A stretch of 64,000 nucleotides of DNA, from contig CAVAGP010000002.1 in NCBI GenBank assembly GCA_963588175.1, forward strand, positions 51,515 to 115,514, written 5' to 3'. The position numbers and the translations under genes were made by a program. Below the pieces are notes generated by a model. It made no database searches. It was not told the origin of the DNA and saw nothing but the letters and a program-made list of their open reading frames with translations. This document shows, in pieces, positions 16,012-53,301 of the stretch; position 1 is the stretch's first letter, and every line of letters begins with the position of its first letter. Origin of the DNA: Faecalibacillus sp. GTDB lineage: Bacteria; Bacillota_I; Bacilli_A; RFN20; CAG-826.

Positions 16012-16162
16012 AACAATTGTAGAAACCAAACTGGTCTGTATCGAATTTCAGCCTTTATAGATCAGAACGGTTAAAAGACGGTTGCTTCTTATCTCGCACG
16101 AGCGGAATGGAGGCGTGTATATTGCTCCTCGCGGGAAATACTCTCGAAGGGAGGAAGATTAC

Positions 16163-16282
16163 ATAAACATTTTGAATATTCTCTTTGTAACGGTTATTAT
16201 GAATCTCGATAAGATTTGTAATGTAATCATGTTCGTGCTTTATATGCACGACCGATACCATGCTAAGAAGAATAAAGAGTGA
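16163..16282 (+). CDS. Small hydrophobic peptide (type I toxin candidate, copy A; start codon position is ATA)
   Basis: GGGAGG SD (16149..16154). The codon 8 nt downstream, where copy B has ATG, is ATA. Reading from there gives (M)NILNILFVTVIMNLDKICNVIMFVLYMHDRYHAKKNKE. In-frame TTG at 16172 and ATG at 16199 lack an SD. Confidence 0.35.
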   Translation: MNILNILFVTVIMNLDKICNVIMFVLYMHDRYHAKKNKE

Positions 16283-16382
16283 GCCGTCTGCTGCAACAGA
16301 ATGGCTCACTAAGTCGTATGAAAATTCACACTTCATACAATTTAAGTAAACTATGATTTGGTAGCAACCGTCTGGTTTCTAC
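16268..16382 (-). ncRNA. Antisense RNA (type I antitoxin candidate), copy A
   Basis: Promoter TTGACT (16417..16412), 17 nt, TATAAT (16394..16389), +1 about G16382. Terminator GUGAGCC...GGCUCAC (16309..16279) followed by UCUUUAUUCUUCUU. Fully complementary to the last 5 codons and the 3' UTR of the toxin mRNA. Confidence 0.55.
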
Positions 16383-16480
16383 ATTTTTATTATATATTTT
16401 TTCACCCAATAAGTCAAGTAAAAATTAGAAAAAGTGCGTACTTTTTGAAATAAAAGTACGCACTTTTCTTACATGTTTCG

Positions 16481-19400: not shown

Positions 19401-22400
19401 GAATCTGCTTTGTCTTTATATCGACCTTGAACGGTAGTCTCTCTGCCAATCTGTCCGATTGTATAAGAGATGCCTTTACGATATAAATTCTCAGAACGTT
19501 GCCAACGTTGCTGATTCATTGCTGATTCAGCTTTTGTAATTACGTTGTCTATTTTACGTTCTACACGGTCTAAACGAATCTCAATCCAGTCGAAGAACTT
19601 ACCAAACCACTCTTGAAAGTTTGATAAGACTTTATCTTCTCCAGAACCAGAAGCAAACGACATACCTCCGACAGTACCGTTAGCGTGAGATGCGCCGATG
19701 AATTTGCCGTAAGAAGATGCTTTGCCAGAGTTTAAAAGGTCACGAGTCTGTGCTGCATTAAAGACAATATCGTCTTTTTGCAGATCTGCAAATCCGGGCT
19801 TGCCTCCGTTATGAATAAACCAACGACCTTTTCTGGAAATAATCTCCGGGCCGACCTCATTGACGAGAGCACGTCCGCTCTTACCGACGCTCCAGTCCCC
19901 GCTTGCTTTTGCTGGTCCGCCAATTTTTGTTGAACTTTCAGAAAATGCAGTTCCAGTAGCAGGACTAGTACCGTCGCCACCTATAAAACGTTTTACGTAG
20001 TTTACGATAGTCGTCATAGGAGAAGGAGCTTCTTGACTACCCTTGGTGTAATTAACCTCAGTATTCTTTGGGTCCGGCGTTTGTTGCAAACCTAGATTAT
20101 AATCTACTTTTGTATCTTTTGGATCAGGATTAATTTGGTTTCCTTTAGTATAATCTACCGGGGTGGTTTTGCGAGAAGGGCTTTCCTGAGATCCTTTAAT
20201 GTAATCCATTAAGGCATTCATAGCGTCAGGATTGTCCTGATTAGCTTTTATATAACTCAGTAAAGCATTCATAGCCACTGGATCATCTTGATGCTCGATG
20301 ACATAATTCATCAATGCTTCTTGATCTTCAGGATCTTCTTGGCTTTGAACAGCATAATCGAGCAAAGCTTGTTCTTCTTCAGGAAGTTCTTGGCTAGCTA
20401 TTTCGTAATTAACTTTGACAGTTTCATCTGTTTCGGAAGTTTTTTTATTACTTTGTCTACAACCACTAGAAGGATCATCTTTAGAGGTTTTAGCCTTGTA
20501 CTTTTTTGTGCCCTCTTCAAAAGAATCATCAGAAACATCGTCTTTATCTTTGTTTTGACGTTTACGTTTATTCTTTGAATACTTTCGCTTAGAAGTGTCG
20601 CCGCCAAGTTTCTTAATATAATTGTCCGCGTCTTCACTTAATGATATGAGTTCTGCGAAAAGACCGTCTTTCTTAGCTTCTTTTTTCCATTGAGCAACAG
20701 ATTTACCACTCTTCTTAGCAGCCGCAAAACTATCTTGCACCGCAAGCTCTGCTTCTTGAATCTTGCGTTTATATTGCTGAATATCTGTTATCTGGTCATC
20801 AGATAAAGTATTAATATTCTTTCCCATAAAATCGCTAAGATTTTCAGCAACGTTGCGAGAATTAACATAAGAATCATTAACCCAGCTCTTATACTTACCA
20901 TTCTTAGTTTTGAATGAGTTGTGATCTCCGCTTTCCATCGTCGAGAGATCTCTCTCATTGGTAGAGATATATTCCGCAAGAGTTTCGTGGGAATCATTAC
21001 CATTGTCAATAAGGTTTTTTAATCTAACCCTCTCTGCGCGAATTTGTGCTTCGTCTAATTCGGCTTTAATCTTGACTGCAATTTCCGGATCGAACTTTGA
21101 AAGGTCTCCATCAAGACCATCAAGATACTTTTCAAACTCATCAATATCATTCGACAAAGCGTCTCTAGTATCAGAGTCTTCGATGCCATCTCTTGCGGTT
21201 TTCAATTTATCCAAATTAGAAGATGCTTCATCATAAGCTTTTGCTACACTCTGAATGTTTTTAATTTTGAAACTGCCGTACTTGGTGATGTCATAATCGC
21301 CGAGACGACCCATAATAGCTTCAACAGAGCGGACCGAGATGCCGAGCTGATCAGCAACTTCTGCGGTATTTTTAAACTCTTTACCAGAGGAAGCTAAATC
21401 GCTTACAAAGTTATTTATACCAGACTTGGTGTACTCACCATCGTCGTTGGTTGTGAAATATCTCTGAAGTTTTTCATAGTTATCAGCAAAGTCACGCTTG
21501 TATTTTTTACCGTCAGGATCAATGAATTTAGCAATGGTCTTGAAGTCGTCTGTGCCAACAAGACCTTTGTCATACAAATCCTTTCCTGATTTCAGATAGT
21601 TACCAAGGTTCTCAAAGTCAGCACCTTCATTTGCTGATTCAGCGGCTTTTGCAATGCCTTCTAAGGTGCCATCTACTTCTTTGGCTTTTTTCTGAGCTTT
21701 AGTAGCAGACTCAGATAAATCATCAAAATACCGATTAAGATTCTCTACATTTTCAACACCAAGATCATCTAATGAAATACCAAGAGCGGCAACTACATCA
21801 GAAGCTTTCTTGCCGCTCTCAGCCATCTTGTCTAATATTGTACTTTGCAACTGTGAACGTGAATCCGTGCCGTTATTAAAGAAGCTTTGTAAAGTTTTTA
21901 GATCTTTCTGAAGAGGAGTGGCATTAGATGTATCGCTTTCATATTTAAGAAGAGCAGCATTCGCTGCATCAAATGCTTTTTGGTAATCATCATTCCAGTA
22001 AGTTGAACCAATGCCCTTAGCAAGTTCATCTCTCGCTGTCTGAATGTCGGCAGCTTCTGTTGCGGCTTCAGCTTTTAAATCAGAAAGTTTTTGCTTCTGA
22101 TCGGAAATCCGTTTGTCTAAGTCATCAGTGTTTTCGCCTTTGTCTTGGAGCTTCTGCCTTTCGTTTTCCAACTTCGTAAGATCTTTTTCTGCTAACTTCA
22201 TCTTTTTGAGATTAGCAGTCAGATCTTCAATAACATCTCTACGACCTGAGAATGATCCGCCATTAGCACCAGTAATCTTTTCACCGGAGATTGCTGCACT
22301 TTCATTATGATAAACCTTTGAGTCATCCGTTAAAAGCTCATAATTCTCGTCAACAGTATCTTTTAAATCTGCTTTTGCTTGAGCTTCTAATAATGTCTTC

Positions 22401-23140
22401 TTTCTCTCAAGTTCAGCATTTTGTTGCTTTAACGTTTGGAGTTCAGCCTCATCAGTCATACTAAGACGACCGTTTGCAGATAACTTTTGCAATTCTTCTA
22501 TACGAGATTGCGTAGTTGATAACTCATCATTCACAGAACTCAAATCAGATTGCGTGCTTGCATACGTAGACGCAGCGTCTTGAGCCGCCTGTTTGTTGTT
22601 GTCATACTCATGTAGTTTATCCGAAATAGCACCAATAGCAATTCCAATTGCAGCCATTGCAGCCATCTGCGGTAAGACAGAGACTAAGGTGGCTTTTAAT
22701 CCAGATAAGACAGTTCCAAAGGTGCTAAAAGATGTAGATACTTTTCCAGAAGAAACATTTTGAAATTGCTTTTCAGCTTTCGCAAGTTCCTTCGAGGCTT
22801 GGATTCGGTTTTGTCGTGCCGCATTATATTTCTCAGTAGCCTTAGCTTGTTCTTCAATGGAGGACGTAGGAGATTGAAGAATGTTACGTAAATTATTTTC
22901 GGCACTAGTCAAATCCTTGGCTGCCTTAGCGCTCTGGCTCCTTGCTCCATCAAGATTAGTCTGCGCTTTGGTTAAAGCATCTTGAACGATAAGTTGATTC
23001 TTTTGTGCATCTGTTAAAGAACTGCTTTCAACCACAACTTTCTTTTGTGAGTCTGAAAGTCCATCCAAACTTTTTCGGACGATATCAATATTTTTCTCGC
23101 CTTTGATGCTTTTTATTGCTTCTCCAGTTGTTTTTAGTGA
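16481..23140 (-). CDS. Tape measure protein, exon 4 (C-terminal 2219 codons)
   Basis: 2220-aa ORF-track ORF that begins only with an in-frame TTG, with no SD and no ATG for about 155 codons. Long coiled-coil, Ala/Lys/Gln-rich sequence with a hydrophobic segment (VLPQMAAMAAIGIAIGAI), typical of TMPs. The in-frame join to exon 3 is proposed at 30574|23140. Confidence 0.7.
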   Translation of the reverse strand, partial: SLKTTGEAIKSIKGEKNIDIVRKSLDGLSDSQKKVVVESSSLTDAQKNQLIVQDALTKAQTNLDGARSQSAKAAKDLTSAENNLRNILQSPTSSIEEQAKATEKYNAARQNRIQASKELAKAEKQFQNVSSGKVSTSFSTFGTVLSGLKATLVSVLPQMAAMAAIGIAIGAISDKLHEYDNNKQAAQDAASTYASTQSDLSSVNDELSTTQSRIEELQKLSANGRLSMTDEAELQTLKQQNAELERKKTLLEAQAKADLKDTVDENYELLTDDSKVYHNESAAISGEKITGANGGSFSGRRDVIEDLTANLKKMKLAEKDLTKLENERQKLQDKGENTDDLDKRISDQKQKLSDLKAEAATEAADIQTARDELAKGIGSTYWNDDYQKAFDAANAALLKYESDTSNATPLQKDLKTLQSFFNNGTDSRSQLQSTILDKMAESGKKASDVVAALGISLDDLGVENVENLNRYFDDLSESATKAQKKAKEVDGTLEGIAKAAESANEGADFENLGNYLKSGKDLYDKGLVGTDDFKTIAKFIDPDGKKYKRDFADNYEKLQRYFTTNDDGEYTKSGINNFVSDLASSGKEFKNTAEVADQLGISVRSVEAIMGRLGDYDITKYGSFKIKNIQSVAKAYDEASSNLDKLKTARDGIEDSDTRDALSNDIDEFEKYLDGLDGDLSKFDPEIAVKIKAELDEAQIRAERVRLKNLIDNGNDSHETLAEYISTNERDLSTMESGDHNSFKTKNGKYKSWVNDSYVNSRNVAENLSDFMGKNINTLSDDQITDIQQYKRKIQEAELAVQDSFAAAKKSGKSVAQWKKEAKKDGLFAELISLSEDADNYIKKLGGDTSKRKYSKNKRKRQNKDKDDVSDDSFEEGTKKYKAKTSKDDPSSGCRQSNKKTSETDETVKVNYEIASQELPEEEQALLDYAVQSQEDPEDQEALMNYVIEHQDDPVAMNALLSYIKANQDNPDAMNALMDYIKGSQESPSRKTTPVDYTKGNQINPDPKDTKVDYNLGLQQTPDPKNTEVNYTKGSQEAPSPMTTIVNYVKRFIGGDGTSPATGTAFSESSTKIGGPAKASGDWSVGKSGRALVNEVGPEIISRKGRWFIHNGGKPGFADLQKDDIVFNAAQTRDLLNSGKASSYGKFIGASHANGTVGGMSFASGSGEDKVLSNFQEWFGKFFDWIEIRLDRVERKIDNVITKAESAMNQQRWQRSENLYRKGISYTIGQIGRETTVQGRYKDKADSVLNRAVSKGLINNKQAKAIRKQVKDGSLNIKSYGDRMQEVIKDYKEFYDKSLDAADAIQELKDKVLDYVDALEELHEAQMQAKLDVIDSLDDINTSTQNYTAAAKAAQLRYANDNLEKQNDAYKTRVEETRKDYGRAQNSAENAAKQQSKAKRHKGTSKSEYKKYKKAVKSAQAAIKSGKEVSSSDLSVIENYAKKTTGKTSAKNANKLAAKIIKYNAERQALDEAKLARDVAKAENNADIISNIQDIYDAMDDEANDQIDLLESQADVATTLEEKNKLLKQASSLYDTMLSNDDAEIAEMASGVNSAAKKIAKSTAYGKAINSASAATRKKVEALVQECKRRAASGEDITDDMISQLAEYNSKGYVWRSFYNACLQYHQYYQAKLQAEAQKKIDEASFKAEKEALAYQAFQNIQESYERQQQQYDNEASIIDAQQSKNQALGYGDSAKYYTAKQKAQLAQNESMRQELNALQASLSDLTVGSDEYYDALDAINDLTVSLIEGEAAVAEYQQSINQLNWDRFDELQDRISNLTSETDFLIDLLSYKDLQDKDTGNDTEYGKAVKALHVQNYQTYTQQAKDYAEAIKELDEQFADDSLNKDYLDRRQELVEAQQDAIIAAQDEKESLIDLVQDGYDAQLDALDKLISKYSDVLNAQKDIYDYQQNIKDITKDITTYQKQLQAYQYDDSEEAKQRIQQANQNLMNAQQDLSDAEYDQYISAAQDLLSDLEDELSDHFDDIIDSLRDNADDLINSIDANSADVSSTIKEATDSVGYTMSDAMTKIWGTDSEYGTISASVSAAVTGIKTLSSDINAAADKIAYAVTNKNPEKNGPTDKDPFEITGFASGGVVGNSKKILSRNGDTDFTINTLKAGERVLTPEQNQNFEKLVSFAPDLMDAVAELPKVSIPVDLQSNVSQIDISSPINIEFTLPNVQNYSEFMNEMQKDKRVEKWLTSMLVNPLTGKSSMSKNNIRF

Positions 23141-23156
23141 CAAAATGTGATATATT
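23128..23156 (+). promoter_or_regulatory. Candidate promoter of zinc-ribbon gene (straddles the TMP exon 4 boundary)
   Basis: TTGTTT (23128..23133), 17 nt, TATATT (23151..23156) with an upstream TG (extended -10). Confidence 0.4.
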
Positions 23157-23176
23157 ATATAAAGGAGGAAAACAAT

Positions 23177-23662
23177 ATGAGAAAAATAATTTGCAAAGAT
23201 TGTAATGAAGAATATGACGTAAATGACAGCAAATGCAACAAATGCGGCTGTTTAACATCAGACACAAAAGAATATTATAAAATTAAGTATTCGGAGAGTT
23301 TTGAATATGTATTTGATATGTGTCCTGTCATATGCGAGTGTAATAAAAACTATAGTGACCAGAATATATACATTAGAGATGATGCGATATATACCTATTG
23401 TCCAATTTGTCAAAATGATCGCGTAATTGCACCATTAGACCTCGAAAGAGCCAAACGTTTTAACGATGTGCGAAGAAAAGGTTTTTATATGGCAGAACAA
23501 GAATCTCAAAACAAATGCGTTCCACATTGTCCAACATGCGGTTCAACCAACATAAAAAAGCTTAGTACAACCAAACGTATTACTCACGGTGCGATGTTTG
23601 GATTGTTCAGTAAAACCGCTCGTTCTCAGTGGGAATGTAAGAATTGCGGTAATAAATGGTGA
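23177..23662 (+). CDS. Multi-zinc-ribbon protein (unknown function)
   Basis: Start moved to ATG 23177 (AAAGGAGG SD). Four CxxC pairs: CKDCN...CNKCGC, CPICQ, CPTCGS...CKNCGNKW. It is the only plus-strand protein gene in the island. Confidence 0.6.
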   Translation: MRKIICKDCNEEYDVNDSKCNKCGCLTSDTKEYYKIKYSESFEYVFDMCPVICECNKNYSDQNIYIRDDAIYTYCPICQNDRVIAPLDLERAKRFNDVRRKGFYMAEQESQNKCVPHCPTCGSTNIKKLSTTKRITHGAMFGLFSKTARSQWECKNCGNKW

Positions 23663-24133
23663 GAAAAAGCGACTGTAAATACAGTCGCTTTTTATATGTA
23701 GAAATAAAAGAGTATTCAATGTTGCAATTTCAGATTTAGACATATGAACAATTTTGTTTGGATGTATCGAATTTAATGAATGGTATATCTTATATTCCAT
23801 CAAAATATTCTGTAATTTTTCCAAAGATAATTTATCTATGGTTCTTCTGTAATTTAATAATTCCTCACATAGTTCGACTGTAAAAGTATTATTAAGTTGA
23901 AGATAACTATCCTTTTGAATGACAGTTTCAATAGGATCATCTGAATAAACCACGATATTGCTCCGGAATGCAGCCTGATATTCTTTGCCTTGTAACGAAT
24001 CCATATGTGCAATTTCAATGTAATCATCATTAATCGCTACTATTAAACAAGGATGTTCTTTATCAGCAACTACACCATCATTATTAAAACGTACTCGCAA
24101 CCAAAGTACTTGTCCAATCTCTAAATCTTTCAT
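23543..24133 (-). CDS. MazF/PemK-like (SH3-barrel) toxin candidate partnered with Panacea-like gene 1
   Basis: N-terminus GQVLWLRVRFNNDGVVADKEHPCLIVAINDDYIEI resembles the MazF/PemK G.i..v.f.......K.RP.lVv block. ATGA overlap with the upstream gene. The ORF runs through the 23664..23693 terminator and 120 nt into the convergent gene. Confidence 0.4.
   Translation of the reverse strand: MKDLEIGQVLWLRVRFNNDGVVADKEHPCLIVAINDDYIEIAHMDSLQGKEYQAAFRSNIVVYSDDPIETVIQKDSYLQLNNTFTVELCEELLNYRRTIDKLSLEKLQNILMEYKIYHSLNSIHPNKIVHMSKSEIATLNTLLFLHIKSDCIYSRFFSPFITAILTFPLRTSGFTEQSKHRTVSNTFGCTKLFYVG
23664..23693. terminator. Bidirectional intrinsic terminator
   Basis: A5-AGCGACTG-taaata-CAGTCGCT-T5 (stem 23668..23675 / 23682..23689). 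Confidence 0.65.
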
Positions 24134-24624
24134 AAGTCAATTCTGTCTATAACCTTTAACATATCGGAATACTGTTCGACATATTCCTTATGATGTCCTT
24201 CGGTGTCCATTTTCTGTTCTGCTCCAGTACAATTTCGTTTCTCTTGCCAAGCAGAATCTTCATGAGAAAGTTCGATTAATTCTTCTAATGAAGCATTTTG
24301 CAGAACATAAAAAATCTTGTCTAAAAAACAACGGACAGAATTATCTGCTTCGGTAAAAGATTTTGAGTTTGAAAGCAAGGAAGAATAGTTTCGATAGACA
24401 TCGTTTACTACTGCTCCATTAGCATAAGCAAGCAAAGGGTCTGCAAATAAAAGATTACCAGTCTTAGCGTAGAAAAGGTTTTGCGAAATGTGTAAATATT
24501 TATTCAGCCTAGCATTGCCAGAATAAAAATTATGGCCATTCCGACATGTTAAATCTGTAGTGAAAATATTATGATTAGGATCTTTTGAAAGATAATACAA
24601 AGCAATATCTCTTGCAGAATACAT
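24130..24624 (-). CDS. Divergent Panacea (DUF4065/SocA-like) antitoxin-domain protein 1
   Basis: Start moved to ATG 24624 (AAAAGGAGG SD). MYSARDIALYYLSK...LNKYLHISQNLFYAKTGNLLFADPLLAYANGAVVNDVY is weakly DUF4065-like. Own promoter TTGACA (24796..24791), 17 nt, CATAAT (24773..24768). Confidence 0.45.
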   Translation of the reverse strand: MYSARDIALYYLSKDPNHNIFTTDLTCRNGHNFYSGNARLNKYLHISQNLFYAKTGNLLFADPLLAYANGAVVNDVYRNYSSLLSNSKSFTEADNSVRCFLDKIFYVLQNASLEELIELSHEDSAWQEKRNCTGAEQKMDTEGHHKEYVEQYSDMLKVIDRIDL

Positions 24625-24809
24625 AACAAAACCTCCTTTTCTATATGAAAATGGCTCCATAAAAGTAAGAATGGGGATAGTTTTCACTAGCCCCACCCGT
24701 CATCTTCACTCGGTTATTTTTTGTTTACCGACGAGTCGGAACCGTCACTCGTCATCTTCTTTACTATATTATGAAGCAAAATATGTTAAATGTCAATAGG
24801 AATTTTTTA

Positions 24810-25298
24810 TTATGTAGAATTATCTGTAGTCTGAGTCAGTTGAGATTCAATAGCAGACACATCAGGAAATATAATTTTTACGCCTTTACGATGAAGAACT
24901 AATACTCTTTGAGCTTTAGCCAATAACTTTGCTTCAGCAACTTCGTCCAAACGAACAGATTTGCCATGATTAAAATATTCATCATTAACATAATCTTCTG
25001 TTACTGGACACATATTTTGAATCAAGAATGCCTTTTTATATCCGAGAACATATGCAAAGAAAATAGTATCACAACGATGATGTCTTTTCATCTTTTGATT
25101 ATAAATTCTTTTGAATTTACTTACCTGAGAAGAAAATGGAATCATCCAATATAAGCCAGTAGTTGGATCTTGAAAGGCATAATAACAAGCTCTTCCGTGC
25201 GGCTGACCGTTTTGTTCTTCTTTGTTTTGCATCAAACAAGGATCAGAAAAAGTAGAAAAATATTGGTCTTTGAGAAAATAAAAATGTCCAGTTTTCAA
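24810..25298 (-). CDS. ToxN/AbiQ-family type III toxin (endoribonuclease) candidate
   Basis: FYFLKDQYFSTFSDPCLMQNK...GLYWMIPFSSQVSKFKRIY...AFLIQNMCPV resembles ToxN/AbiQ blocks. Preferred start is TTG 25298 (GAGG SD 7 nt upstream); an alternative ATG lies at 25328. Preceded by tandem RNA-type repeats. Confidence 0.65.
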   Translation of the reverse strand: MKTGHFYFLKDQYFSTFSDPCLMQNKEEQNGQPHGRACYYAFQDPTTGLYWMIPFSSQVSKFKRIYNQKMKRHHRCDTIFFAYVLGYKKAFLIQNMCPVTEDYVNDEYFNHGKSVRLDEVAEAKLLAKAQRVLVLHRKGVKIIFPDVSAIESQLTQTTDNST

Positions 25299-25347
25299 AA
25301 TAAATACCTCATATGAAAATAGCTCCATTCGATAAAGAACGGAGCTA

Positions 25348-25450
25348 CAAGATTTGAACTCGACCTTCTTTGAGTTGCGTATCGAGAAGCAACAGACATT
25401 TGGACTCGACCTTCTTTGAGTTGCGTATCGAGAAGCAACAGACATTTGAA
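25348..25450 (-). ncRNA. ToxI/antiQ-like repeat RNA (type III antitoxin candidate): 2 full 46-nt repeats plus a partial one
   Basis: Units at 25359..25404 and 25405..25450 (ctcgaccttctttgagttgcgtatcgagaagcaacagacatttg[g/a]a), plus a partial copy at 25348..25358. Directly upstream of the ToxN-like ORF on the same strand. Confidence 0.65.
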
Positions 25451-25467
25451 ATCTTTTCTGTATCAAT

Positions 25468-25496
25468 AGTATATGCTATATCTTCAGAAAAATCAA
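25468..25496 (-). promoter_or_regulatory. Promoter of the type III module
   Basis: TTGATT (25496..25491), 17 nt, TATACT (25473..25468). Confidence 0.5.
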
Positions 25497-25539
25497 TATT
25501 CTATGGGTAAAAATTGAACATTTTTATTATGTAAGTTAT

Positions 25540-26427
25540 TTATTTGCCATCATCAATACTGGAGATATTTCCTGATCCATTAGCAACTTCGTCTACAAGC
25601 CGATATTGATGATTGCCAATATTAATTTTTTCTGGAAAAGACATTTTCGAAACACCAAGAGAGATAATTGTAATCACAGCCACAAAAGCTAAAACTCCTA
25701 TACTGGCTATAATTTTAGCATTCCACTTTCTCTTCCCATTTTTGTCTCGAATAACTTTGTCGTTAATTTCTCTCAAAAAATCTATTAGGATCGACACCAA
25801 AAGGACAAAAACTAATCCAATTACGATAGCAATAACCACGAGATCTAATGTTTTGGCTTTGCCAAGATTGTTTAAGACAGAAGTCGAAAAGGTAAATGCT
25901 CCTACAAAAGCTAACATAATAGAAGCAAAGATTCCCAAGATTGTGATATACTCCTTTTCTACGCCCTTAATCTCATTATGAAGGTCTACTTTCGCATCTA
26001 CAATTCGCTGTGCAAAAATGTCATTCATATTTTCGATTTGGTAATTGACCAATTGCGTATGGTCGTATATTTTTGTAACTATTTTTACAACATCATCATT
26101 AATACTATCTTCTTTGCTCAGAGAATAAATAAGCAGATTCTCAACATTTGTAAGAAAGATAGCTCTTTTGTCCGGCTCTAAATTAAACAAATAATTACTA
26201 ATTTCAGAATATGGAATCCTAGCTATTTTATCTTTTGTATTCACATAGAGATCAATCTGCTTAATTGTTTTCTCTGGACGATATTTTTTCGTTTCGATTG
26301 TTAGACAGTAGCAAATACTATTTATCCTTCGTTTGGTTGTATTATACTTCTTAGAATCAGTACTAAGAAATTCGTCAGAAGAATCATCTACTTGTTGAAG
26401 TGAATCAAGAGGATTTGTGTCAAGCAT
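25540..26427 (-). CDS. Membrane protein, toxin/effector candidate partnered with Panacea gene 2
   Basis: 295 aa. A soluble N-terminal ~165 aa is followed by three hydrophobic helices (ILGIFASIMLAFVGAFTF, LVVIAIVIGLVFVLLVSILI, IIASIGVLAFVAVITIISL). 8-nt overlap with the upstream antitoxin-like gene. Confidence 0.5.
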   Translation of the reverse strand: MLDTNPLDSLQQVDDSSDEFLSTDSKKYNTTKRRINSICYCLTIETKKYRPEKTIKQIDLYVNTKDKIARIPYSEISNYLFNLEPDKRAIFLTNVENLLIYSLSKEDSINDDVVKIVTKIYDHTQLVNYQIENMNDIFAQRIVDAKVDLHNEIKGVEKEYITILGIFASIMLAFVGAFTFSTSVLNNLGKAKTLDLVVIAIVIGLVFVLLVSILIDFLREINDKVIRDKNGKRKWNAKIIASIGVLAFVAVITIISLGVSKMSFPEKINIGNHQYRLVDEVANGSGNISSIDDGK

Positions 26428-26899
26428 GGAAATACTCCTTTATAGCTTTGGGTGAGATCTCAGTGTTCTTCCCTTGCTGATAAGCATTCTTCCACGGAGC
26501 TTGGCGATGAGTAATAGCTACTAAATCAGTTGCAGAGTAATCAGAAAATTTATCGACGACTGCTTCAATCATATGTTTATCCGTTTTTGTGATAACGTCA
26601 TCATCGTATTCCAGTATCCTTGAATTCCAAATATTATCCTCATCAACATCCACGATAAACGAAGTGGTTGGAATATCTCCACTCCCGAATTGCTTATACC
26701 TTTTATATGCTTCTGGAACAACTGGACCAAAATCCCATGCTATAATTTTTTCTTTAAAACATTGCTTATCGGCGACAATCAAGAAGTACGCCTGAACGAA
26801 ATATAACATTTTCTGAAGTTTTAAGTTAGAAATACCATAGTCTTTTTTATTGCTGTAATCAATTATATATTTACAAACATCTAATACATCATAGCTCAT
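26420..26899 (-). CDS. Panacea (DUF4065/SocA-like) antitoxin-domain protein 2
   Basis: VLDVCKYIIDYS...ISNLKLQKMLYFVQAYFLI...EKIIAWDFGPVVPEAYKRYKQFG...HRQAPWKNAY. Own promoter TTGACA (27018..27013), 17 nt, TATACT (26995..26990). The 5' UTR ends TTTTCATATAGAAGAGGAGGT, nearly identical to that of gene 1. Confidence 0.7.
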   Translation of the reverse strand: MSYDVLDVCKYIIDYSNKKDYGISNLKLQKMLYFVQAYFLIVADKQCFKEKIIAWDFGPVVPEAYKRYKQFGSGDIPTTSFIVDVDEDNIWNSRILEYDDDVITKTDKHMIEAVVDKFSDYSATDLVAITHRQAPWKNAYQQGKNTEISPKAIKEYFHA

Positions 26900-27033
26900 C
26901 TACTACACCTCCTCTTCTATATGAAAATAACCACACCGTAAGATGTGGTTATTAATACGATTTTGGTAGGCTTCGTAACCTCTATTAACAGTATATGCTA
27001 GAATAATATAAATGTCAATATAATTATATTATC

Positions 27034-27486
27034 TTAATCATTTTGAGCTTCTTCATATTTTTTGGCATAGTAGTTTCTCATTGTTTTGCATGAGATAGGA
27101 TCTGTACATACTTCCCACGCATAAGCTTGATGACGCGCTTCTTTCCACGGGTGTTCTGAACAAGCGAGCCACTCAAGTTGATCTCCGGTGAATTCTCCAT
27201 ATGTGTTATATACTGCATTTAAAACATATAACGTGTCATCTGAAAATAATGAGTAATCACAATTCTCTTTAGGTATTTCTTTCCATCCATATTTGGAGAA
27301 TTGCCGATAGAGGGAAGGAACTACAGGGCCATGAACCCACGCCTGAATTTCATCCTCAAACAACCGATCTCCAGCAAACAGAGCACAACTCCACGCCTGA
27401 GCATAATAACAAAGTTTTTGAAGTTTTTTATGCGTCATTGAATCTTTACTCAAGAACCATTTGGCAATATCAGCAACGGCATACAT
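27034..27486 (-). CDS. Panacea (DUF4065/SocA-like) antitoxin-domain protein 3
   Basis: VADIAKWFLSKDSMTHKKLQKLCYYAQAWSCALF...DEIQAWVHGPVVPSLYRQF...SEHPWKEAR. SD TAAGGAG; starts 12 nt after the stop of the 148-aa ORF. Confidence 0.75.
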   Translation of the reverse strand: MYAVADIAKWFLSKDSMTHKKLQKLCYYAQAWSCALFAGDRLFEDEIQAWVHGPVVPSLYRQFSKYGWKEIPKENCDYSLFSDDTLYVLNAVYNTYGEFTGDQLEWLACSEHPWKEARHQAYAWEVCTDPISCKTMRNYYAKKYEEAQND

Positions 27487-27498
27487 AATAGAATCTCC

Positions 27499-27945
27499 TT
27501 AATGATTGTAAGCAGAATAATCGAAATCAAAAGCGATTACATGCATAAGATTAGGTTGATATATATCGTCTTTACATATAATACGATATTTCTGCTGTCC
27601 AAAACGAAACACAGTAAGTTTTGTTTCATCCGTAACTAAGTTCTTTTGAATGCAAATAGACTGGATTTTATTTGACATTTGTTTTAGGGGAATTTTTTCT
27701 AACCCAGCAGTTTTGCCTCGATCTCTTGCTTCGGTTACTGTTATCTGAGATAATTCATATAGTCTTTTGTGTAAATGTTCATATGCCTTGCATTTATCAG
27801 AAGTGCTTTTCCGGAAATATTCAAAGCCATGAGAGGAGTCGAAACTCATATAAGAGAATCCAAAACAGATGTTTAGGGGAGACTGACCTAAATTGCCAGA
27901 GGATAGTTTCGGCACAATCCTTCGTTTGTCTTTAGCTTTCATCAT
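27499..27945 (-). CDS. Toxin candidate (possible RelE/ParE-like fold) flanked by two Panacea genes
   Basis: 148 aa. The C-terminal part LTVFRFGQQKYRIICKDDIYQPNLMHVIAFDFDYSAYNH resembles the RelE-superfamily ...yRiiy......v..i...H..Y pattern (weak). Overlaps the stop of Panacea gene 4 by 14 nt. Confidence 0.35.
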   Translation of the reverse strand: MMKAKDKRRIVPKLSSGNLGQSPLNICFGFSYMSFDSSHGFEYFRKSTSDKCKAYEHLHKRLYELSQITVTEARDRGKTAGLEKIPLKQMSNKIQSICIQKNLVTDETKLTVFRFGQQKYRIICKDDIYQPNLMHVIAFDFDYSAYNH

Positions 27946-28402
27946 CTACATAATTTTCCCTGAAGTATTTTTTCATAGTGTCTCGGCTAATAATCTGGTT
28001 CAGGCGCTTACCATGATTGGTAGCTTCTATCCAAGGAGATTCTTCATGAGTCCGGTTCCTTAATGCCCATGCAGAATATTGCCCAAACACATCAAATACT
28101 TGTGTCAAGAATATTGAATCATCCTTAGAAAATTTTCGAGCATCTTGAATATCTTCGTCTGTCAATTGTAAATTATACGGATCAGAATAAGCATAGTAAA
28201 CTTCTTTGACAACAGGACCATGTTCCCAAGCTAAGATATCTTCATTGAATAAAGATTTGTTCTTAATAGCCAAATAAGAACCTTCGGCGTAATATAATAA
28301 TTTCAAAAGTTTGAGAAGTGACAACGGTTCTCCACCAAGATCGTCTTGTGCTTGTTGGTTATGATATATAAACCAATGAGCAACATCAATCGCACGATAC
28401 AT
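27932..28402 (-). CDS. Panacea (DUF4065/SocA-like) antitoxin-domain protein 4
   Basis: AIDVAHWFIYHNQ...LSLLKLLKLLYYAEGSYLAI...EDILAWEHGPVVKEVYYAY...HEESPWIEAT. GAAGAGGAGG SD. Confidence 0.75.
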   Translation of the reverse strand: MYRAIDVAHWFIYHNQQAQDDLGGEPLSLLKLLKLLYYAEGSYLAIKNKSLFNEDILAWEHGPVVKEVYYAYSDPYNLQLTDEDIQDARKFSKDDSIFLTQVFDVFGQYSAWALRNRTHEESPWIEATNHGKRLNQIISRDTMKKYFRENYVDDES

Positions 28403-28465
28403 AACAAGACCTCCTCTTCCTTATATGTTATTATATTATGAATCAGATCATCAAAAACATCAAGA

Positions 28466-28497
28466 CAAAATATAAAAATAGCGGGGAAATCCCCCGC
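28466..28497 (-). terminator. Intrinsic terminator (minus strand)
   Basis: GCGGGGG-auuu-CCCCGC followed by UAUUUUUAUAUUUUG on the minus strand. Confidence 0.6.
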
Positions 28498-28531
28498 CGT
28501 TCGGTGGACTAGGGTCTTACGACCAGCCCAA

Positions 28532-28714
28532 TCAGTTCGAACTGTTATCTTGCTTGCGAAATGCAAATAATTCTAATTTAGCTCGCGCCTTCTCCAAAGA
28601 AGGGGAGTGTGGTTGATAGTTCTGAAAAGAACTATTATCAAGAATTGATTTCAGACTCTCGAAAGAAGCGGAGTCTTTTATATAGAATTCTTTTGTGATA
28701 GAAGATGTTGCCAT
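28532..28714 (-). CDS. 60-aa protein downstream of Panacea gene 5 (partner of unknown nature)
   Basis: CGAGGTG SD 5 nt upstream of the ATG, 12 nt after the stop of the upstream gene. Hydrophilic; no motif recognised. Confidence 0.45.
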   Translation of the reverse strand: MATSSITKEFYIKDSASFESLKSILDNSSFQNYQPHSPSLEKARAKLELFAFRKQDNSSN

Positions 28715-28726
28715 GAAAACACCTCG

Positions 28727-29167
28727 TTATTCTTCCGATAATCCTCCATAATACATTGCCATGCTTTCTTGTGTAATAATATTATCTGAACCAACACCCA
28801 TAGGCAATCCTTTTCGAGCTTCATTCCAAGGCGCTTCCATATGGGTAAGCTGACTTAGCCATTGGGCATTATGACAAGCGTAATGGTCTAACACAATATC
28901 TATAGTCTCTTTCTGAGAATCTGACAAAACAGATATATCTCCCGGTTCGTCGTTCTCAGTTACTGCAAATATTCCTTGCGTCTCAAAGAACAACTCTCGA
29001 CACACAGGACCATTTGCCCAAGCATGAAATTCCTCTGGGAACAATGGCTCGTCATCCCATACAAGAGACCATGCTTGACAATAATAACAAAGTTTTTGCA
29101 ACTTCATTGTAGAAAGCTTTCCTTGTTTGTGTAGAATGTATTTTGCTACATCAAATATACTTGCCAT
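28727..29167 (-). CDS. Panacea (DUF4065/SocA-like) antitoxin-domain protein 5
   Basis: IFDVAKYILHKQGKLSTMKLQKLCYYCQAWSLVW...EEFHAWANGPVCRELF...THMEAPWNEAR. Confidence 0.75.
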   Translation of the reverse strand: MASIFDVAKYILHKQGKLSTMKLQKLCYYCQAWSLVWDDEPLFPEEFHAWANGPVCRELFFETQGIFAVTENDEPGDISVLSDSQKETIDIVLDHYACHNAQWLSQLTHMEAPWNEARKGLPMGVGSDNIITQESMAMYYGGLSEE

Positions 29168-29602
29168 ATGCTCCCCGTCCTATCGGTTGATATTATATTC
29201 TGCTTTACAGAAATAATAAAATGCGTGTTACAATGCTGGCTGTCAGCCCAGACGTTAATGACGCCTGTAATCAAATCATCGTATATCCTCGATGCAGGCT
29301 GCGTGTCCTTTCGAACACAGATATGTGCGTGGTACTTATCCTCCCCAGCCGGAGCACAGCTTTAACGTGTCGCCACACGGAGAACGTTTCGATCTCTTGA
29401 ATACTGAGAAGGAGACTAGCACAATACAGTGCCATAGTCTCCTTCTACGATTGACTTTGCCGTTATCAGGAAACCCCTCCAGATCCCACATCTGGAGGCA
29501 TTGGCAGGCATTGTCGTCGCTTACTGACTATGCTCAACGCGGAGCATCCCTGATTTTACACGTCAGCGTCGTGGATTTTCCTTTAGAATTTAATTTAAGC
29601 TC

Positions 29603-29631
29603 TTGACAAGGAAAATCCAATCTGTTATTAT
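29603..29631 (+). promoter_or_regulatory. Promoter of type I toxin-like mRNA, copy B
   Basis: TTGACA (29603..29608), 17 nt, TATTAT (29626..29631). Predicted +1 at G29638. Confidence 0.6.
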
Positions 29632-29772
29632 CGAAGAGTGGAAGCCACCGACCCGACTTGGATTGGGGGGGTGGAACGGTTCCGAAGACGGTTGCCTGTC
29701 ATCTCGCAAAGCGCGGAATGGAGGCTTGCATATAGCTCTTTGTGGGAAATATTTCCGAAGGAGGACGAACAC

Positions 29773-29871
29773 ATGATTACTACCCTGAGTATCACCGGAA
29801 ACATTTCCAGCATTCTCGGTTTCGCATTCGCGATCTTCGTGTTTACATACCAGATAAAGAAAAAGAAGTGA
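29773..29871 (+). CDS. 32-aa hydrophobic peptide with Lys4 tail (type I toxin candidate, copy B)
   Basis: AAGGAGG SD (29759..29765), 7 nt, then ATG. MITTLSITGNISSILGFAFAIFVFTYQIKKKK has a single TM-like helix and a cationic C-terminus. Confidence 0.55.
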   Translation: MITTLSITGNISSILGFAFAIFVFTYQIKKKK

Positions 29872-29972
29872 ACTGTCCGCCACAATAGACAGCTTCACAG
29901 GATTTATGAAGTTACCAGCTTTATAAATCAAAAATAAAAATCACAAATCTGTAGCAACCGTCTGGTTTCCAC
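29855..29972 (-). ncRNA. Antisense RNA (type I antitoxin candidate), copy B
   Basis: Promoter TTGACT (30007..30002), 17 nt, TATAAT (29984..29979), +1 about G29972. Hairpin GUGAA(G)CUGUC...GACAGUUCAC (29898..29868) followed by UUCUUUUUCUUUAU. Overlaps the toxin stop and KKKK codons. Confidence 0.55.
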
Positions 29973-30060
29973 ACTTTTATTATAAACTTCTTATTAACAA
30001 AAGTCAATATGTCCCCACACTTTGAAACAAAAAGTTTTTATAAAAGATTGAATTTATTTG

Positions 30061-30090
30061 TTGACTTTGACGATAAACACCATGTATAAT
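30061..30090 (+). promoter_or_regulatory. Promoter of small plus-strand RNA
   Basis: TTGACT (30061..30066), 18 nt, TATAAT (30085..30090). Confidence 0.5.
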
Positions 30091-30096
30091 ATACAC

Positions 30097-30178
30097 AGAT
30101 GGTAAGTATCACTTACAATCGACAAAACTCTAACGAGAGTGGTTGTGCTGCATTCAGTATGACCACTCTTATTTTATT
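30097..30178 (+). ncRNA. Candidate ~80-nt sRNA antisense to the 3' periphery of the TMP intron core
   Basis: Downstream of the promoter lie hairpin GUAAGU-auc-ACUUAC and terminator AGAGUGGU (30136..30143) / ACCACUCU (30162..30169), followed by UAUUUUAUU. No ORF with an SD. Confidence 0.45.
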
Positions 30179-30276
30179 CCCATTTGCGGCAGGGAAGAGC
30201 CGAATCACATTTTAGAACAAACATTATTAGCTGCACATCTAAGGCGTATGCAACTAAGAGGGTGGGTGCTCGTTGG

Positions 30277-30573
30277 GGATGAATACCATTTAAAAAGCTT
30301 ACCTCATATTATTGAGATGTGCTTTACCTAAACGTTTGGTATCCGTCCTGCTGATTGCAGTCAATGCATCATATCTTTTTAAACCATGCCATATATCATT
30401 ACTGATTCTGTTTTGGCATATAATACTCTTGCTTCCCAGCATTTACCCCTCTAGGTATTTTAAATCATCAAGAACCCCTATGTTAATATTACTTGTTCAC
30501 AACACCATTTTTATTGTGTTCTTGTAATAAAGTAGACTCGCTATACAACCCTATGTCTTTTGGGTCAATCAAA
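30277..30573 (-). ncRNA. Group I intron catalytic core (TMP intron 3)
   Basis: - P1: exon UCAUCAAGAAU (30584..30574) with guide GUUCUUGAUGA (30476..30466), 11 bp including U.G.
- P3: UACCUA/UAGGUA (30457..30452, 30330..30325).
- P/Q boxes: AAUGCUGGGAAG / GCAAUCAGCAGG (30443..30432, 30358..30347).
- P7: GGAUACC/GGUAUUC (30344..30338, 30287..30281).
- P8: AUCUCA/UGAGGU (30318..30313, 30306..30301).
- P9 hairpin lies just outside this span at 30257..30227. Confidence 0.7.
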
Positions 30574-31179
30574 ATTCTTGATGAATGCAGCAATACCGCT
30601 GCCAACAGCTATGGTTCCTAAAGAACCCATTGCACTAGTTATCTGATTAATGACTTGTAAGAATTCATTTGCACCAGAAACAGCACCTTTTAGAAAATCT
30701 GAATCTGCTAAGTTAGAAGAAGTCTCTTGGAACGTAGCCTTTAACTGACCAAGACGTCCTTGAATAGACTCCATATAACGAGCATTTTCTTGCTCGGCAC
30801 TACCTGCGGATTCGTACTCCGCTGTCTGATATGCTTCTTTAATCATATCAACATTATTCAGAGCAGCAGCAAGTGCGTTTGCTTGGTTCTTACCAGCGAG
30901 AGTTTCAAGTAATGCAGCCTGATCTATGTCAGACAGACTATCCCAAACCTCGCCGATACCGACGATAATATCATACATATTTTTAAATGTTTTACCGTCG
31001 GATTCCATAATGTCAAAGCCTGTCATGCTTTGCACAATGTTTTGTAATTTAGACGAGCTTGTGACTACATTATCTGTGTCTTCGCCCATTGTCTCAAGTT
31101 CAGTAGATGCACCACGGATACGAGCAGATACTGTTTTCCACATATTGCCTGTACGTGCTGCATCCTGTACGACAGCATT
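30574..31179 (-). CDS. Tape measure protein, exon 3
   Basis: Begins NAVVQDAARTGNMWKTVSARIRGASTELE and ends with the hydrophobic segment ...SLGTIAVGSGIAAFIKN. 606 nt, in phase with exons 2 and 4. The ORF-track ORF 30565..31143 is its 3' part. Confidence 0.8.
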
Positions 31180-31611
31180 CTATTGTATTCAATAAGGTCG
31201 TAAATCTTATTATGTATTATTTACATCATTATGTTTCCATAATGTATAGGTCATCTTTTCACCTGCGCCATTATGCGATCAGGGTACACTCTTTCCATTT
31301 AAGGGGTTTTCACCCACGCCATATACGATTGCGCCGTACTCCTATTGACTAATATAGTCCCGACACGGGGATGACCGTCGAACCTCTACTCTTACCGCAA
31401 AGCAGTAAGGCTTGGCTGCTGATTGCCAATTGCATAAATCTTTAGCACCCGAAGGCTTTTTTTCAGCATAGATTCATCTCAATATTTTTTTCTGCTTTCG
31501 CAACATTCACGTTTGTCTTTTCGACTGCGTTGTAGTATATTGAGCTTTATGGGTTCCCAGCAATTAAGTGTATTCTTAGGCACATATTTCTATATACCGA
31601 ACCTCTATCGA
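31180..31611 (-). ncRNA. Group I intron (TMP intron 2, 432 nt, no ORF)
   Basis: 5' splice site GGAACU|UCGAUAGA. Guide GGUUC pairs with exon GAACU (U.G at the site). P box AAUUGCUGGGAA, Q box GGCAAUCAGCAGCC. P7 is GGUCAU/AUGACC. Ends ...CAAUAG| with a terminal G. Confidence 0.8.
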
Positions 31612-31729
31612 AGTTCCTGTTGTTAATGCTATAGCTTGAGATAAGTCAGTGTTTGCTACTTTAAAACTAGCAGAACTACGTTGCAGAGCCTCGCCGATAT
31701 CATCAGACGATATTGCGAAATTATTAGAT
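31612..31729 (-). CDS. Tape measure protein, exon 2 (118 nt)
   Basis: Encodes (V)SNNFAISSDDIGEALQRSSASFKVANTDLSQAIALTTGT, the missing middle of the TP901-type TMP core. Too short for the ORF track. Confidence 0.8.
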
Positions 31730-32016
31730 CAATTGTTACTTTTCAAATTGAAAAGGCTAGGTCATTTCTGCCTAGCTCTCACGTTTTATATTTTTGATTA
31801 TTGCGTGAGGTCGGACTGTATATTCATCCTATAAGAGCAGGAGGATAACTTCAGTAAAATGTATTACTACATTAAACCCGGCAGTCTCTACGGATTCTAT
31901 AATTTTAAATCATAGTCTTTCCTCGGTCTGAACCATCTCTGGCCTTTAACCGATATAGTTATCGTCAACTCTAAAAAGAGAAGCATATGTGTTGCCACAT
32001 ATGGAGGCATCTGTTT
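31730..32016 (-). ncRNA. Group I intron (TMP intron 1, 287 nt, no ORF)
   Basis: 5' splice site AAUGAGGU|AAACAGAU. Guide GCCUC pairs with exon GAGGU (U.G). Q/R-like AAUCCGUAGAGACUGCC and S-like AUAUACAGUCCGA (P7 is GACUG/CAGUC). Ends ...AACAAUUG|. Confidence 0.8.
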
Positions 32017-53251: not shown

Positions 53252-53301
53252 CAAGAGAGATAATTGAAACTTTTTTACTTTGTATAATGTAGGGGCGAAG
53301 A

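Follow-up and report, generated by a model that had tools for sequence, protein, structure and literature searches.

The window analysed here is the whole stretch of 64,000 nucleotides from contig CAVAGP010000002.1 of Faecalibacillus sp., in which the tail module of an SPbeta-like phage is encoded on the minus strand from about 43.5 kb downwards; the Pfam families YonD, YomW and YomU were found in relatives of this phage. The module includes the gene of the tape-measure protein (TMP), the N-terminal part of which (PF10145) is split into three pieces, and the last piece (31143..30565) ends with ...GIAAFIKNFD*. The related locus L001, which shares about 90% nucleotide identity, has a single uninterrupted open reading frame (ORF) of 748 amino acids with the same end, indicating that NFD* is not an artefact of the window. 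The final FD of this part, termed exon 3 here, was aligned with the ..FFD.. of TMPs that are continuous in other phages. The C-terminal part, termed exon 4, is a frame of 2219 codons that opens directly after G23141 and is intact, as are the remaining tail ORFs of the window. An earlier note on this DNA had described this frame (16481..23140) as lacking both an ATG and a Shine-Dalgarno (SD) sequence. This was borne out, as the sole candidate start, TTG at 23143, is preceded by neither an SD sequence nor a purine-rich stretch, and the 33 nt upstream of the frame correspond in reverse complement to the ribosome-binding site of an oppositely oriented zinc-ribbon gene. The sequence between exons 3 and 4 probably forms one group I intron that carries accessory genes.

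To compare the locus with its relatives, a fusion of exon 3 and exon 4 was used as a protein query, and 79 TMP N-terminal proteins were obtained, almost all of which end 0-50 residues past ..KN[FLIV][DGA] with tails of unrelated junk. GTDB genomes and IMG/VR were scanned with an exon-3 profile, which gave 93 more loci from gut Clostridia phages and prophages, and the comparison set consisted of 96 related loci. The TMP was continuous in 43 loci (...FFDKLNLFRTTDQKNW...; ..FFDKLxLFRTTD..), running on for another 1200-2400 codons, and it was broken at the same codon position in 54 loci, where it resumes 930-7427 nt downstream. The comparison with phages lacking the island, which the earlier note had proposed as a check, thus yielded 43 loci encoding exons 3 and 4 as one continuous protein. 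In these loci, the exon-3 and exon-4 homologies share one frame. The downstream N-terminus of the interrupted loci (S-L-K, Q-F-K, I-F-K or R-I-K) corresponds to L-[FL]-[KR]-T-T of the continuous proteins, and it often lies right after a stop codon or upstream of the first ATG. These results indicate that the two halves are one gene, the second half of which is unable to start translation alone in most loci. As for the window sequence itself, a contig from an independent sample was 100% identical to positions 19628..25387, which points to an element in circulation, and L001 and L140 keep the core at 91-93% identity. No match to the island was detected among GenBank phages by megablast, and pattern scans of IMG/VR and metagenomes for window-type cores returned only the contig of L073 itself and the L001-type variant (L140). 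The exon-4 N-terminus used as a protein query found nothing, the candidate list probably being swamped by coiled-coil words.

The borders of the insert were the same in character across the loci. The exon-final base was U (GAU, GGU or GCU) in all but one locus, and a hairpin (hairpin 1) begins at the base right after it and covaries in relatives (UAGCCA/UGGCUA, CAGACA/UGUCUG, AGGGA/UCCCU). In an occupied and empty pair of loci with 98% identical flanks, L035 and L037, a 2057-nt insert ending in ..ACAG lies exactly between GGT| and |GCA; in the window, the precise insertion was placed solely by protein homology to the continuous TMPs. The earlier note had ended exon 3 after AAU (30574) and the intron had been given as 30573..23141. 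The 5' splice site is 6 nt further 3', at GAU/U30568, several relatives having AAC at the former position and the residues FD being part of the conserved protein, and the intron was corrected to 30567..23141 (7427 nt). Its 3' splice site after G23141 was retained, with a phase-0 G preceding the exon-4 start in 28 of 28 mapped loci. Two other placements were rejected, namely splicing after the U of UGA, where the partner alternates between G and A, and phase-2 splice sites at the U.G closing the anchor helix described below, for which there is no G-terminated phase-2 acceptor. In many loci, an in-frame stop codon (UGA, UAA or UAG; 30565..30567 in the window) opens the intron and forms the first pairs of hairpin 1.

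In each insert, a guide sequence was located about 10-60 nt from the start. With its 3' part, it pairs with the final bases of the exon to form P1, which is 3-7 bp long and finishes with a U.G pair (for example UGUCGGU/GCCGACA, CGAGGGU/GCCCUCG, AUAGGU/GCUUAU and UAGAU/GUCUA), and with its 5' part, it pairs with 6-13 bases at the start of the remote exon to form P10. The same search was run for each locus with its own downstream exon (own) and with those of the other loci (swapped). As a result, the median number of contiguous P10 pairs was 8 in own and 4 in swapped comparisons, and at least 7 pairs were found in 75% of the own comparisons and 6% of the swapped ones. A DNA repeat is ruled out as the source of this complementarity, because one strand is conserved coding sequence outside the insert; terminal repeats of a transposon were likewise rejected, since the exon coding sequence takes part. 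Covariation of these predicted helices is the signature of group I exon alignment. In the window, P1 is GAU/GUC (3 bp, with U30568.G30537), and P10 joins UCACUA of exon 4 to UAGCGA of the guide by 5 of 6 pairs with one A x C. The exon-final U.G, the omega-G and the P10 of group I introns were all found.

The core lies at about 30567..30200 on the minus strand, and the ribozyme (P1-P9) fills the first ~370 nt of the intron. The window, L001 and nine relatives were aligned at both core ends. The helices follow the order P3-P4-P6-P7-P3'-P8-P7' with P, Q, R and S elements, which is that of group I introns. In the P3/P7 pseudoknot, 90% of the cells were paired, compared with 40-54% when the partner was slid by 1-3 columns, and 7 of 13 pairs were changed on both sides. 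P7 was paired in every aligned sequence with three of its six pairs changed on both sides (GACUA/UAGUC, GAGCA/UGCUC, GAACA/UGUUC, GAGCA/UGUUC), and the G-binding G-C pair next to the bulged nucleotide was invariant in 11 of 11 sequences. Textbook R and S elements (CAGAGACUAC and UAUAGUCC) occur in the relatives. A covariance model of P7-P3'-P8-P7', built from 15 relatives with the window and L001 left out, matched window 30206..30285(-) at 39.6 bits (E 4e-8) with 14 of 14 pairs standard. The group I core that the earlier note had seen on the minus strand after exon 3 is therefore supported by a family-specific model (E 4e-8), although not by Rfam, and its P and Q boxes were confirmed (AAUGCUGGGAAG, about 30443..30432; GCAAUCAGCAGG, about 30358..30347). 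Four of its six helix assignments were wrong. Its P3 (UACCUA/UAGGUA) and P8 lie inside a window-specific insertion that is missing in relatives keeping the core, its P7 (GGAUACC/GGUAUUC) is the P6 hairpin, most of the loop of which is that insertion, and its P9 is P8. That the 3' strand of the former P3 and the former P8 are window-specific follows from the relatives of the L043 group, in which P6 (GAAG-8 nt-CUUC) has an 8-nt loop at the same place. The P8 stem of L140 shows a change from G-C to G.U. In locus L006 (10580..11710), the S element (UAGUGU) no longer has the C of the G-binding pair and the ORF downstream encodes only 647 amino acids; this intron is probably a decayed copy.

Two further kinds of helix were found. 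Exon 3 and the intron just 5' of P3 form an anchor helix, which covaries in 12 of 21 loci in one register (exon -11..-4, and about 20 nt upstream of P4 in the intron), for example AAAACGU/GCGUUUU, AGAACUUU/GGAGUUCU, CAAGCAU/GUGCUUG, AGAAUGUGG/CCACAUUCU and AUGGUGC/GCACCAU. Since this helix abuts P1, the 5' exon would be held by two adjacent helices of 11-17 bp in all, and the anchor may retain the 5' exon after cleavage, until the distant 3' splice site can be reached. Part of it had been taken for an 11-bp P1; the pairing is real and conserved (intron strand 30475..30465, one base off), but its role at the splice site was not upheld, because the supposedly obligatory U is C in several relatives. 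The other kind of helix spans the payload. An extended P9.0 is proposed for the window, and other loci have a bridging helix with its 3' strand 16-21 nt before the splice site, which in the L043 group comprises 8 bp and covaries (UCAUGGUA/UACCAUGA, UUGUGGUA/UACCACAA, AUGUGGUA/UACCACAU). When the region after P7 was compared with the intron 3' end, RNAduplex energies did not separate own from swapped loci, and the contiguous-helix version of the comparison gave a modest difference (own 7.2 versus swapped 6.3). The long hairpin that follows the core keeps its stem in L140, where the inner part is changed. The coordinates are collected in Table 1.

Table 1. Features of the interrupted TMP gene, the ribozyme and the payload in the window, followed by P10 helices of related loci.
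Feature	Position	Strand	Description
TMP exon 3	30568..31179	-	last codons AAG AAU UUU GAU (K N F D), last base U30568; borders from intron-less relative L001
TMP exon 4	16481..23140	-	2219 codons and stop, first codons UCA CUA AAA (S L K); homologous to C-terminal parts of continuous TMPs
Group I intron (predicted), whole	23141..30567	-	7427 nt; opens with stop codon UGA, closes with omega-G at G23141
Exon-anchor helix, exon strand	30571..30584	-	UCAUCAAGAAUUUU; 14 contiguous pairs
Hairpin 1	30546..30567	-	UGACCC..GGGUUG; from intron base +1, includes stop codon
Internal guide sequence	30535..30543	-	UAGCGA|GUC; homologous guides in 28 loci pair with own distant exon
Exon-anchor helix, intron strand	30465..30478	-	GGGGUUCUUGAUGA; just 5' of P3
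P3, 5' strand	30447..30452	-	AGAGGG; pairs with 30262..30257; compensatory changes in relatives
P4, 5' strand	30437..30440	-	GCUG, within P box AAUGCUGGGAAG; pairs with CAGC 30353..30350
P4, 3' strand	30350..30353	-	CAGC, within Q box GCAAUCAGCAGG
P6 hairpin	30281..30344	-	GGAUACC...GGUAUUC; loop holds window-specific insertion
P7, 5' strand (R element)	30267..30273	-	A[C]GAGCA; bulged C30272, G-binding G30271
P3, 3' strand	30257..30262	-	CCCUCU
P8 hairpin	30228..30256	-	UAGUUGCA...UGCAGCUA; all pairs standard in model alignment
P7, 3' strand (S element)	30214..30219	-	UGUUCU; C30215 pairs with G30271
Extended P9.0 (proposed), 5' strand	30204..30213	-	AAAAUGUGAU; directly 3' of P7; perfect 10-bp complement of 23151..23142
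Extended P9.0 (proposed), 3' strand	23142..23151	-	AUCACAUUUU; directly 5' of omega-G
Long hairpin after core	30135..30170		scored as terminator for plus-strand transcripts
Hydrophobic peptide, 32 amino acids	29773..29871	+	MITTLSITGNISSILGFAFAIFVFTYQIKKKK; candidate type I toxin with strong SD upstream
Panacea (SocA) antitoxin gene 1	28727..29167	-	PF13274, E 4e-16
DUF3800-XI RNA motif	28483..28530	-	Rfam 62.9 bits versus gathering 37.8; ends in terminator-like hairpin
Panacea antitoxin gene 2 and overlapping partner ORF	27499..28402	-	antitoxin 27932..28402 (PF13274, E 3e-19); partner 27499..27945
Panacea antitoxin gene 3	27034..27486	-	PF13274, E 1e-19
Panacea antitoxin gene 4 and overlapping membrane-protein partner	25540..26899	-	antitoxin 26420..26899 (PF13274, E 2e-22); partner 25540..26427
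Type III toxin-antitoxin module	24810..25450	-	46-nt repeats x2.2 (25352..25450), terminator-like hairpin (25348..25319), CptIN-family toxin (24810..25283; NF047359, E 3e-55)
Panacea antitoxin gene 5 and overlapping partner ORF	23543..24627	-	antitoxin 24130..24627 (PF13274, E 4e-7); partner 23543..24133; phrog_13386
Palindromic bidirectional terminator-like hairpin	23664..23693		between convergent cargo operon and zinc-ribbon gene
Zinc-ribbon gene	23177..23662	+	opposite strand to TMP; ATG 36 nt from 3' splice site; C-terminal motif CPxCGS..K..CxxCGxxW
P10, L042			UCUGCUAUAAAAG/CUUUUAUAGCAGA; 13 bp
P10, L085			CAAGUUAAAG/UUUUAACUUG; 10 bp
P10, L002			CGAAUAAA/UUUAUUCG; 8 bp
P10, L073			UCACUUAA/UUAAGUGG; 8 bp
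P10, L088			AUAUUAACUUU/AAAGUUAAUAU; 11 bp
P10, L055			UCACUU/GAGUGA; 6 bp; distance 6.7 kb

The payload of the window is the largest of all loci examined. The content listed in the earlier note was recovered: five Panacea-like antitoxin genes (PF13274 matches, E 2e-22 to 4e-7), a ToxIN-like module consisting of a CptIN type III toxin with 46-nt repeats, a type I module in the form of a small hydrophobic peptide ORF on the plus strand (candidate toxin), a small RNA corresponding to the DUF3800-XI motif, the zinc-ribbon gene, and terminator-like hairpins on the same strand as the TMP gene. Judging from their own promoter-like and terminator-like sites, the cargo genes may be expressed independently, for example in a lysogen. 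One promoter-like site (30007..29979, minus strand) lies by the small-peptide module. The stretches 29674..29774 and 29951..29992, which comprise the hydrophobic-peptide ORF and a promoter-proximal segment, are 78-88% identical to 16065..16164 and 16361..16402 just downstream of the TMP stop, and the repeats look like a duplicated small-toxin module. Another stretch of about 450 nt (29200..29650) is GC-rich, has no convincing ORF or Rfam match, and may be a structured RNA. No recombinase was found among the family matches of the window cargo proteins. L001 and L140 share the core of the window and are without 29221..25601, indicating that the cargo turns over between close relatives. In other relatives, the cargo includes PemK/MazF toxins, GmrSD-N proteins, GNAT enzymes, trypsin-like proteases, DUF2513 and TnpB, and PDC-S45 and PD-T4-2 are among the candidates named by PADLOC. 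The TnpB genes (OrfB_IS605 or Cas12f-like) lie directly after the core in L081-L083 (about 11090..12200) and L033 (about 11074..12261), an IStron-like arrangement within the same intron family.

The zinc-ribbon gene was present in 45 of the 54 interrupted loci, the exceptions being mostly truncated contigs, and in 0 of the 43 continuous ones. Across loci, 36-58 nt separate its start codon from the 3' splice site. The smallest introns (0.93-1.1 kb) consist of the core and a single opposite-strand gene, the product of which has a variable N-terminus and a conserved C-terminal zinc ribbon. Sequence searches of Pfam, NCBIfam, PHROGs, PADLOC and PDB gave no function for this protein. It is the sole conserved ORF of the intron, and it matched none of the nuclease families of homing endonucleases (LAGLIDADG, GIY-YIG, HNH, His-Cys, PD-(D/E)xK). 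In the window, its ribosome-binding site and a TGnTATATT-like extended -10 element lie on the other strand inside the last 35 nt of the intron, and the promoter and 5' untranslated region of the gene thus overlap the 3' splice site and the proposed P9.0 strand. It is conceivable that the gene interferes with splicing in antisense.

Other introns and RNAs occur in the window. TMP introns 1 (32014..31727, 288 nt) and 2 (31612..31180, 433 nt), both on the minus strand, are absent from L001 and L140; Rfam Intron_gpI sees only intron 2 of these, at 31.4 bits, which is below the gathering score of 50. The covariance model of the relatives also matched 50888..50996 (-) and 51439..51555 (-), with E 0.015 and 0.09. 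These two group I-like cores have canonical R and S elements (CAGAGACUA...GAUAGUCCA), were missed by Rfam, and split a YonO-like RNA polymerase gene (PF05183) into the ORFs 53254..51701, 51428..51156 and 50812..50258, the first of which ends with ..SGSDFD just before a core. A RAGATH-18 RNA (55126..55198, minus strand; 66.6 bits versus gathering 44.9) lies upstream of the structural genes in the same orientation. At the gathering score, Rfam found only the DUF3800-XI and RAGATH-18 RNAs in the window.

Phage introns such as that of T4 sunY (nrdD) are also close to the TMP intron in architecture; their ORF reportedly follows the core, and their 3' splice junction is far away. As is said of those introns, the core of the TMP intron lies wholly 5' of the coding insert, and P9.0 and P10 must reach the core from a distance. 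They reportedly carry one same-strand ORF of homing-endonuclease type of about 0.8 kb, whereas the TMP intron has up to about 12 genes and no recognisable endonuclease.

The architecture is closest to that of the IStrons (CdISt1, BcISt1), which are chimeras of a group I intron and an IS200/IS605 or IS607 element in Clostridia, Bacillus and C. botulinum phages, with a 5' ribozyme, a payload after the P9 domain flanked by a stem, and a total length of 0.48-2.6 kb (PMC4227781). The 5' ribozyme, the payload after P9 with a flanking stem and the remote 3' splice site are shared (PMC4227781), as are the Firmicutes and phage hosts, the removal of the whole element from the mRNA (predicted for the TMP intron) and, in some relatives (L081-L083), a TnpB in the payload. 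The TMP intron differs in occupying one orthologous site of one gene rather than being dispersed in copies, in having a payload of up to 7 kb with TA (toxin-antitoxin) and defence-type genes on both strands and their own signals, in its conserved antisense zinc-ribbon gene, and in the lack of P7.1/P7.2 between P3' and P8. The payload of the window is also without a transposase: no TnpA or TnpB of IS200/IS605 or IS607, or remnant of one, was found among the cargo proteins, and the intron of the window therefore lacks the defining feature of an IStron. The target motifs of IStrons are TTGAT, ATTAT, TTTAT or GG at many unrelated sites. The exon end at the TMP insertion is TTGAT in the window and CTAGAT, CTGGAT, GTGGCT or TCGGT in relatives at the orthologous site, and no second copy of the intron was found within the 64-kb window.

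The ND5-717 intron of hexacoral mitochondria is an 18-19 kb gene-carrying group I intron with genes in P8, which is removed by back-splicing (PMC6545197). Like the TMP intron, it is a group I intron of many kb that houses several functional, independently needed genes (PMC6545197), but its genes are housekeeping genes in P8, whereas those of the TMP intron are mobile accessory genes after P9. The defence hotspots of P2 and P4 prophages likewise hold variable TA and defence-type genes, exchanged between relatives, at a fixed position of the phage genome; they are intergenic (PMC9122126), whereas the TMP site interrupts the coding region of an essential structural gene and would require removal at the RNA level. 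The statement in the earlier note that no precedent was known is thus too strong, given the IStrons (PMC4227781) and, as a giant gene-carrying group I intron, ND5-717 (PMC6545197). A full-text literature search returned no bacterial or phage group I intron with TA or defence-type cargo, and no account of this TMP intron family or its zinc-ribbon gene.

Taken together, we consider with a probability of about 0.68 that 30567..23141 on the minus strand is one group I intron in the TMP gene, composed of a 5' ribozyme and a peripheral region with a variable payload. The pairings, their covariation, the borders and the presence/absence pattern were observed directly. Among the three options offered in the earlier note, the comparative data support the first, namely that a self-splicing intron within an essential virion gene came to carry accessory cargo; of that interpretation, the 5' splice site, four of the six helices and the claim of no precedent were not upheld.

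The mechanism proposed on the basis of canonical group I chemistry and the pairings found would be as follows. The 5' exon would be held by the short P1 (GAU/GUC, U30568.G30537), with the 14-bp anchor helix (exon 30584..30571, intron 30478..30465) stacked beside it, and an exogenous G would attack after U30568. The distant 3' splice site would be brought in through P10 (UCACUA of exon 4 with UAGCGA of the guide), in the copy of the window also with the help of the 10-bp extended P9.0 (30213..30204 with 23151..23142), and the omega-G23141 would enter the P7 pocket (G30271-C30215). Ligation of the exons would give ...AAFIKNFD|SLKTTGEAIK... and a TMP of 2967 amino acids, the predicted junction being ...AAUUUUGAU joined to UCACUAAAAAC... 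(cDNA ...GCAUUCAUCAAGAAUUUUGAU|UCACUAAAAACAACUGG). Unspliced RNA would be translated up to the intron-opening UGA and give the N-terminal product of 748 amino acids. Besides catalysis, this scheme presumes read-through of the terminators into one precursor for splicing in cis.

Several observations weigh against this reading. The P1 of the window has only 3 bp, and its P10 contains the A x C mismatch. The extended P9.0 is drawn from the window sequence alone, and a 10-bp match occurred in 3 of 236 swapped A+U-rich comparisons. Terminator-like hairpins lie on the sense strand inside the intron at 28498..28480, 25348..25319 and 23693..23664, and a gene that looks expressed runs antisense to the final 0.5 kb of the intron, so that a contiguous 7.4-kb precursor would need read-through or antitermination. 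Rfam Intron_gpI (RF00028), the search proposed in the earlier note, gave no match on 30150..30620 even at E<=10. The same model likewise misses TMP intron 1, an insert proven by an intron-less relative, and the textbook core of L043, and we attribute the miss to the limited sensitivity of the model.

The terminators also bear on a different arrangement, in which a late RNA with exons 1-3 and the ribozyme stops at a cargo terminator, a second RNA with the intron 3' end and exon 4 starts from a cargo promoter, and P10, P9.0 or the bridging helix brings the two together for joining in trans. The intron does contain terminator-like hairpins on the sense strand as well as promoter-like sites, P10 is unusually long (6-13 bp), a helix spans the payload (10 bp in the window, 8 bp with covariation in the L043 group), and the 14-bp anchor would keep a free 5' exon bound. 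Trans-spliced group I introns occur naturally in organelles; to our knowledge, none has been described in bacteria or phages. The sizes form a continuum down to 0.93 kb, where splicing in cis is the simple reading, no complementarity extends past 8-13 bp, and there is no sign of a promoter placed to make the 3' piece. We therefore regard trans-splicing as unlikely. Slightly less likely still is that the copy of the window is decaying within a true intron family, its oversized payload with terminators, weak P1 and mismatched P10 having cost it splicing and left a defective prophage that makes only the 748-amino-acid product. Its P1 and P10 are the weakest of the set, its payload is the largest, and the relative L006 is an example of such decay, with the G-binding C lost and the downstream ORF shortened. 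On the other hand, exon 4 and the other tail ORFs are intact, as are the catalytic elements (the P7 G-C pair, the bulge, the omega-G and the U.G), and L002, L034 and L017 also have a 3-bp P1, together with a long P10. The core is preserved in L001 and L140 (91-93% identical), where a P8 stem pair has changed from G-C to G.U, and a second sample contains an identical copy. A disrupted TMP in a defective element is also unlikely as a general explanation.

The least probable reading, to which we give very little weight, dispenses with splicing altogether: the TMP N-terminal part and the 2219-amino-acid protein would be separate genes, and the DNA between them an intergenic accessory hotspot or an element excised by recombination. 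The TTG at 23143, an AUG just before the exon-4 start in L073, L031 and L024, and the conserved stop codon at the end of exon 3 would fit this reading. However, the TTG lacks an SD sequence, and the conserved N-terminus of many loci precedes every start codon or directly follows a stop. No recombinase was found among the family matches of the cargo, and P10 is an inverted complement that includes flanking coding sequence, being neither a direct repeat nor a terminal inverted repeat. The ribozyme core, the U and G borders and the covariation between the guide and the distant ORF would also be left unexplained.

A broader and more speculative proposal can also be made. Possibly, although we hold this more doubtful than not, the intron family serves, within an essential late gene, as a dedicated store of defence and TA genes. 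From its own promoters, the payload would be expressed in the lysogen, and the full TMP would be made only with late read-through of the terminators or assembly in trans. The efficiency of splicing would then gate virion production and would also select between the 748- and 2967-amino-acid products. The bipartite exon binding (11-17 bp), the long P10 and the antisense zinc-ribbon gene would then be adaptations to a 3' splice site that arrives minutes late.

The finding would explain why gene callers divide such TMP genes in two, an N-terminal protein that finishes in a junk tail and a giant ORF without a start, and it shows that the group I model of Rfam misses a whole set of phage introns. 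With a stop codon at the start of the intron, unspliced RNA would yield a cleanly ended N-terminal TMP of 748 amino acids, and both a short and a long TMP product would be possible. The family also offers a natural series of 0.9-7.4 kb, including long P10 helices, bridging helices and a second exon-binding helix, in which to study the search of a group I ribozyme for a 3' splice site that is thousands of bases distant. If the reading is true, a ribozyme can turn the interior of an essential phage gene into a region where kilobases of exchangeable accessory genes insert safely, and introns would join the known kinds of phage defence hotspots.

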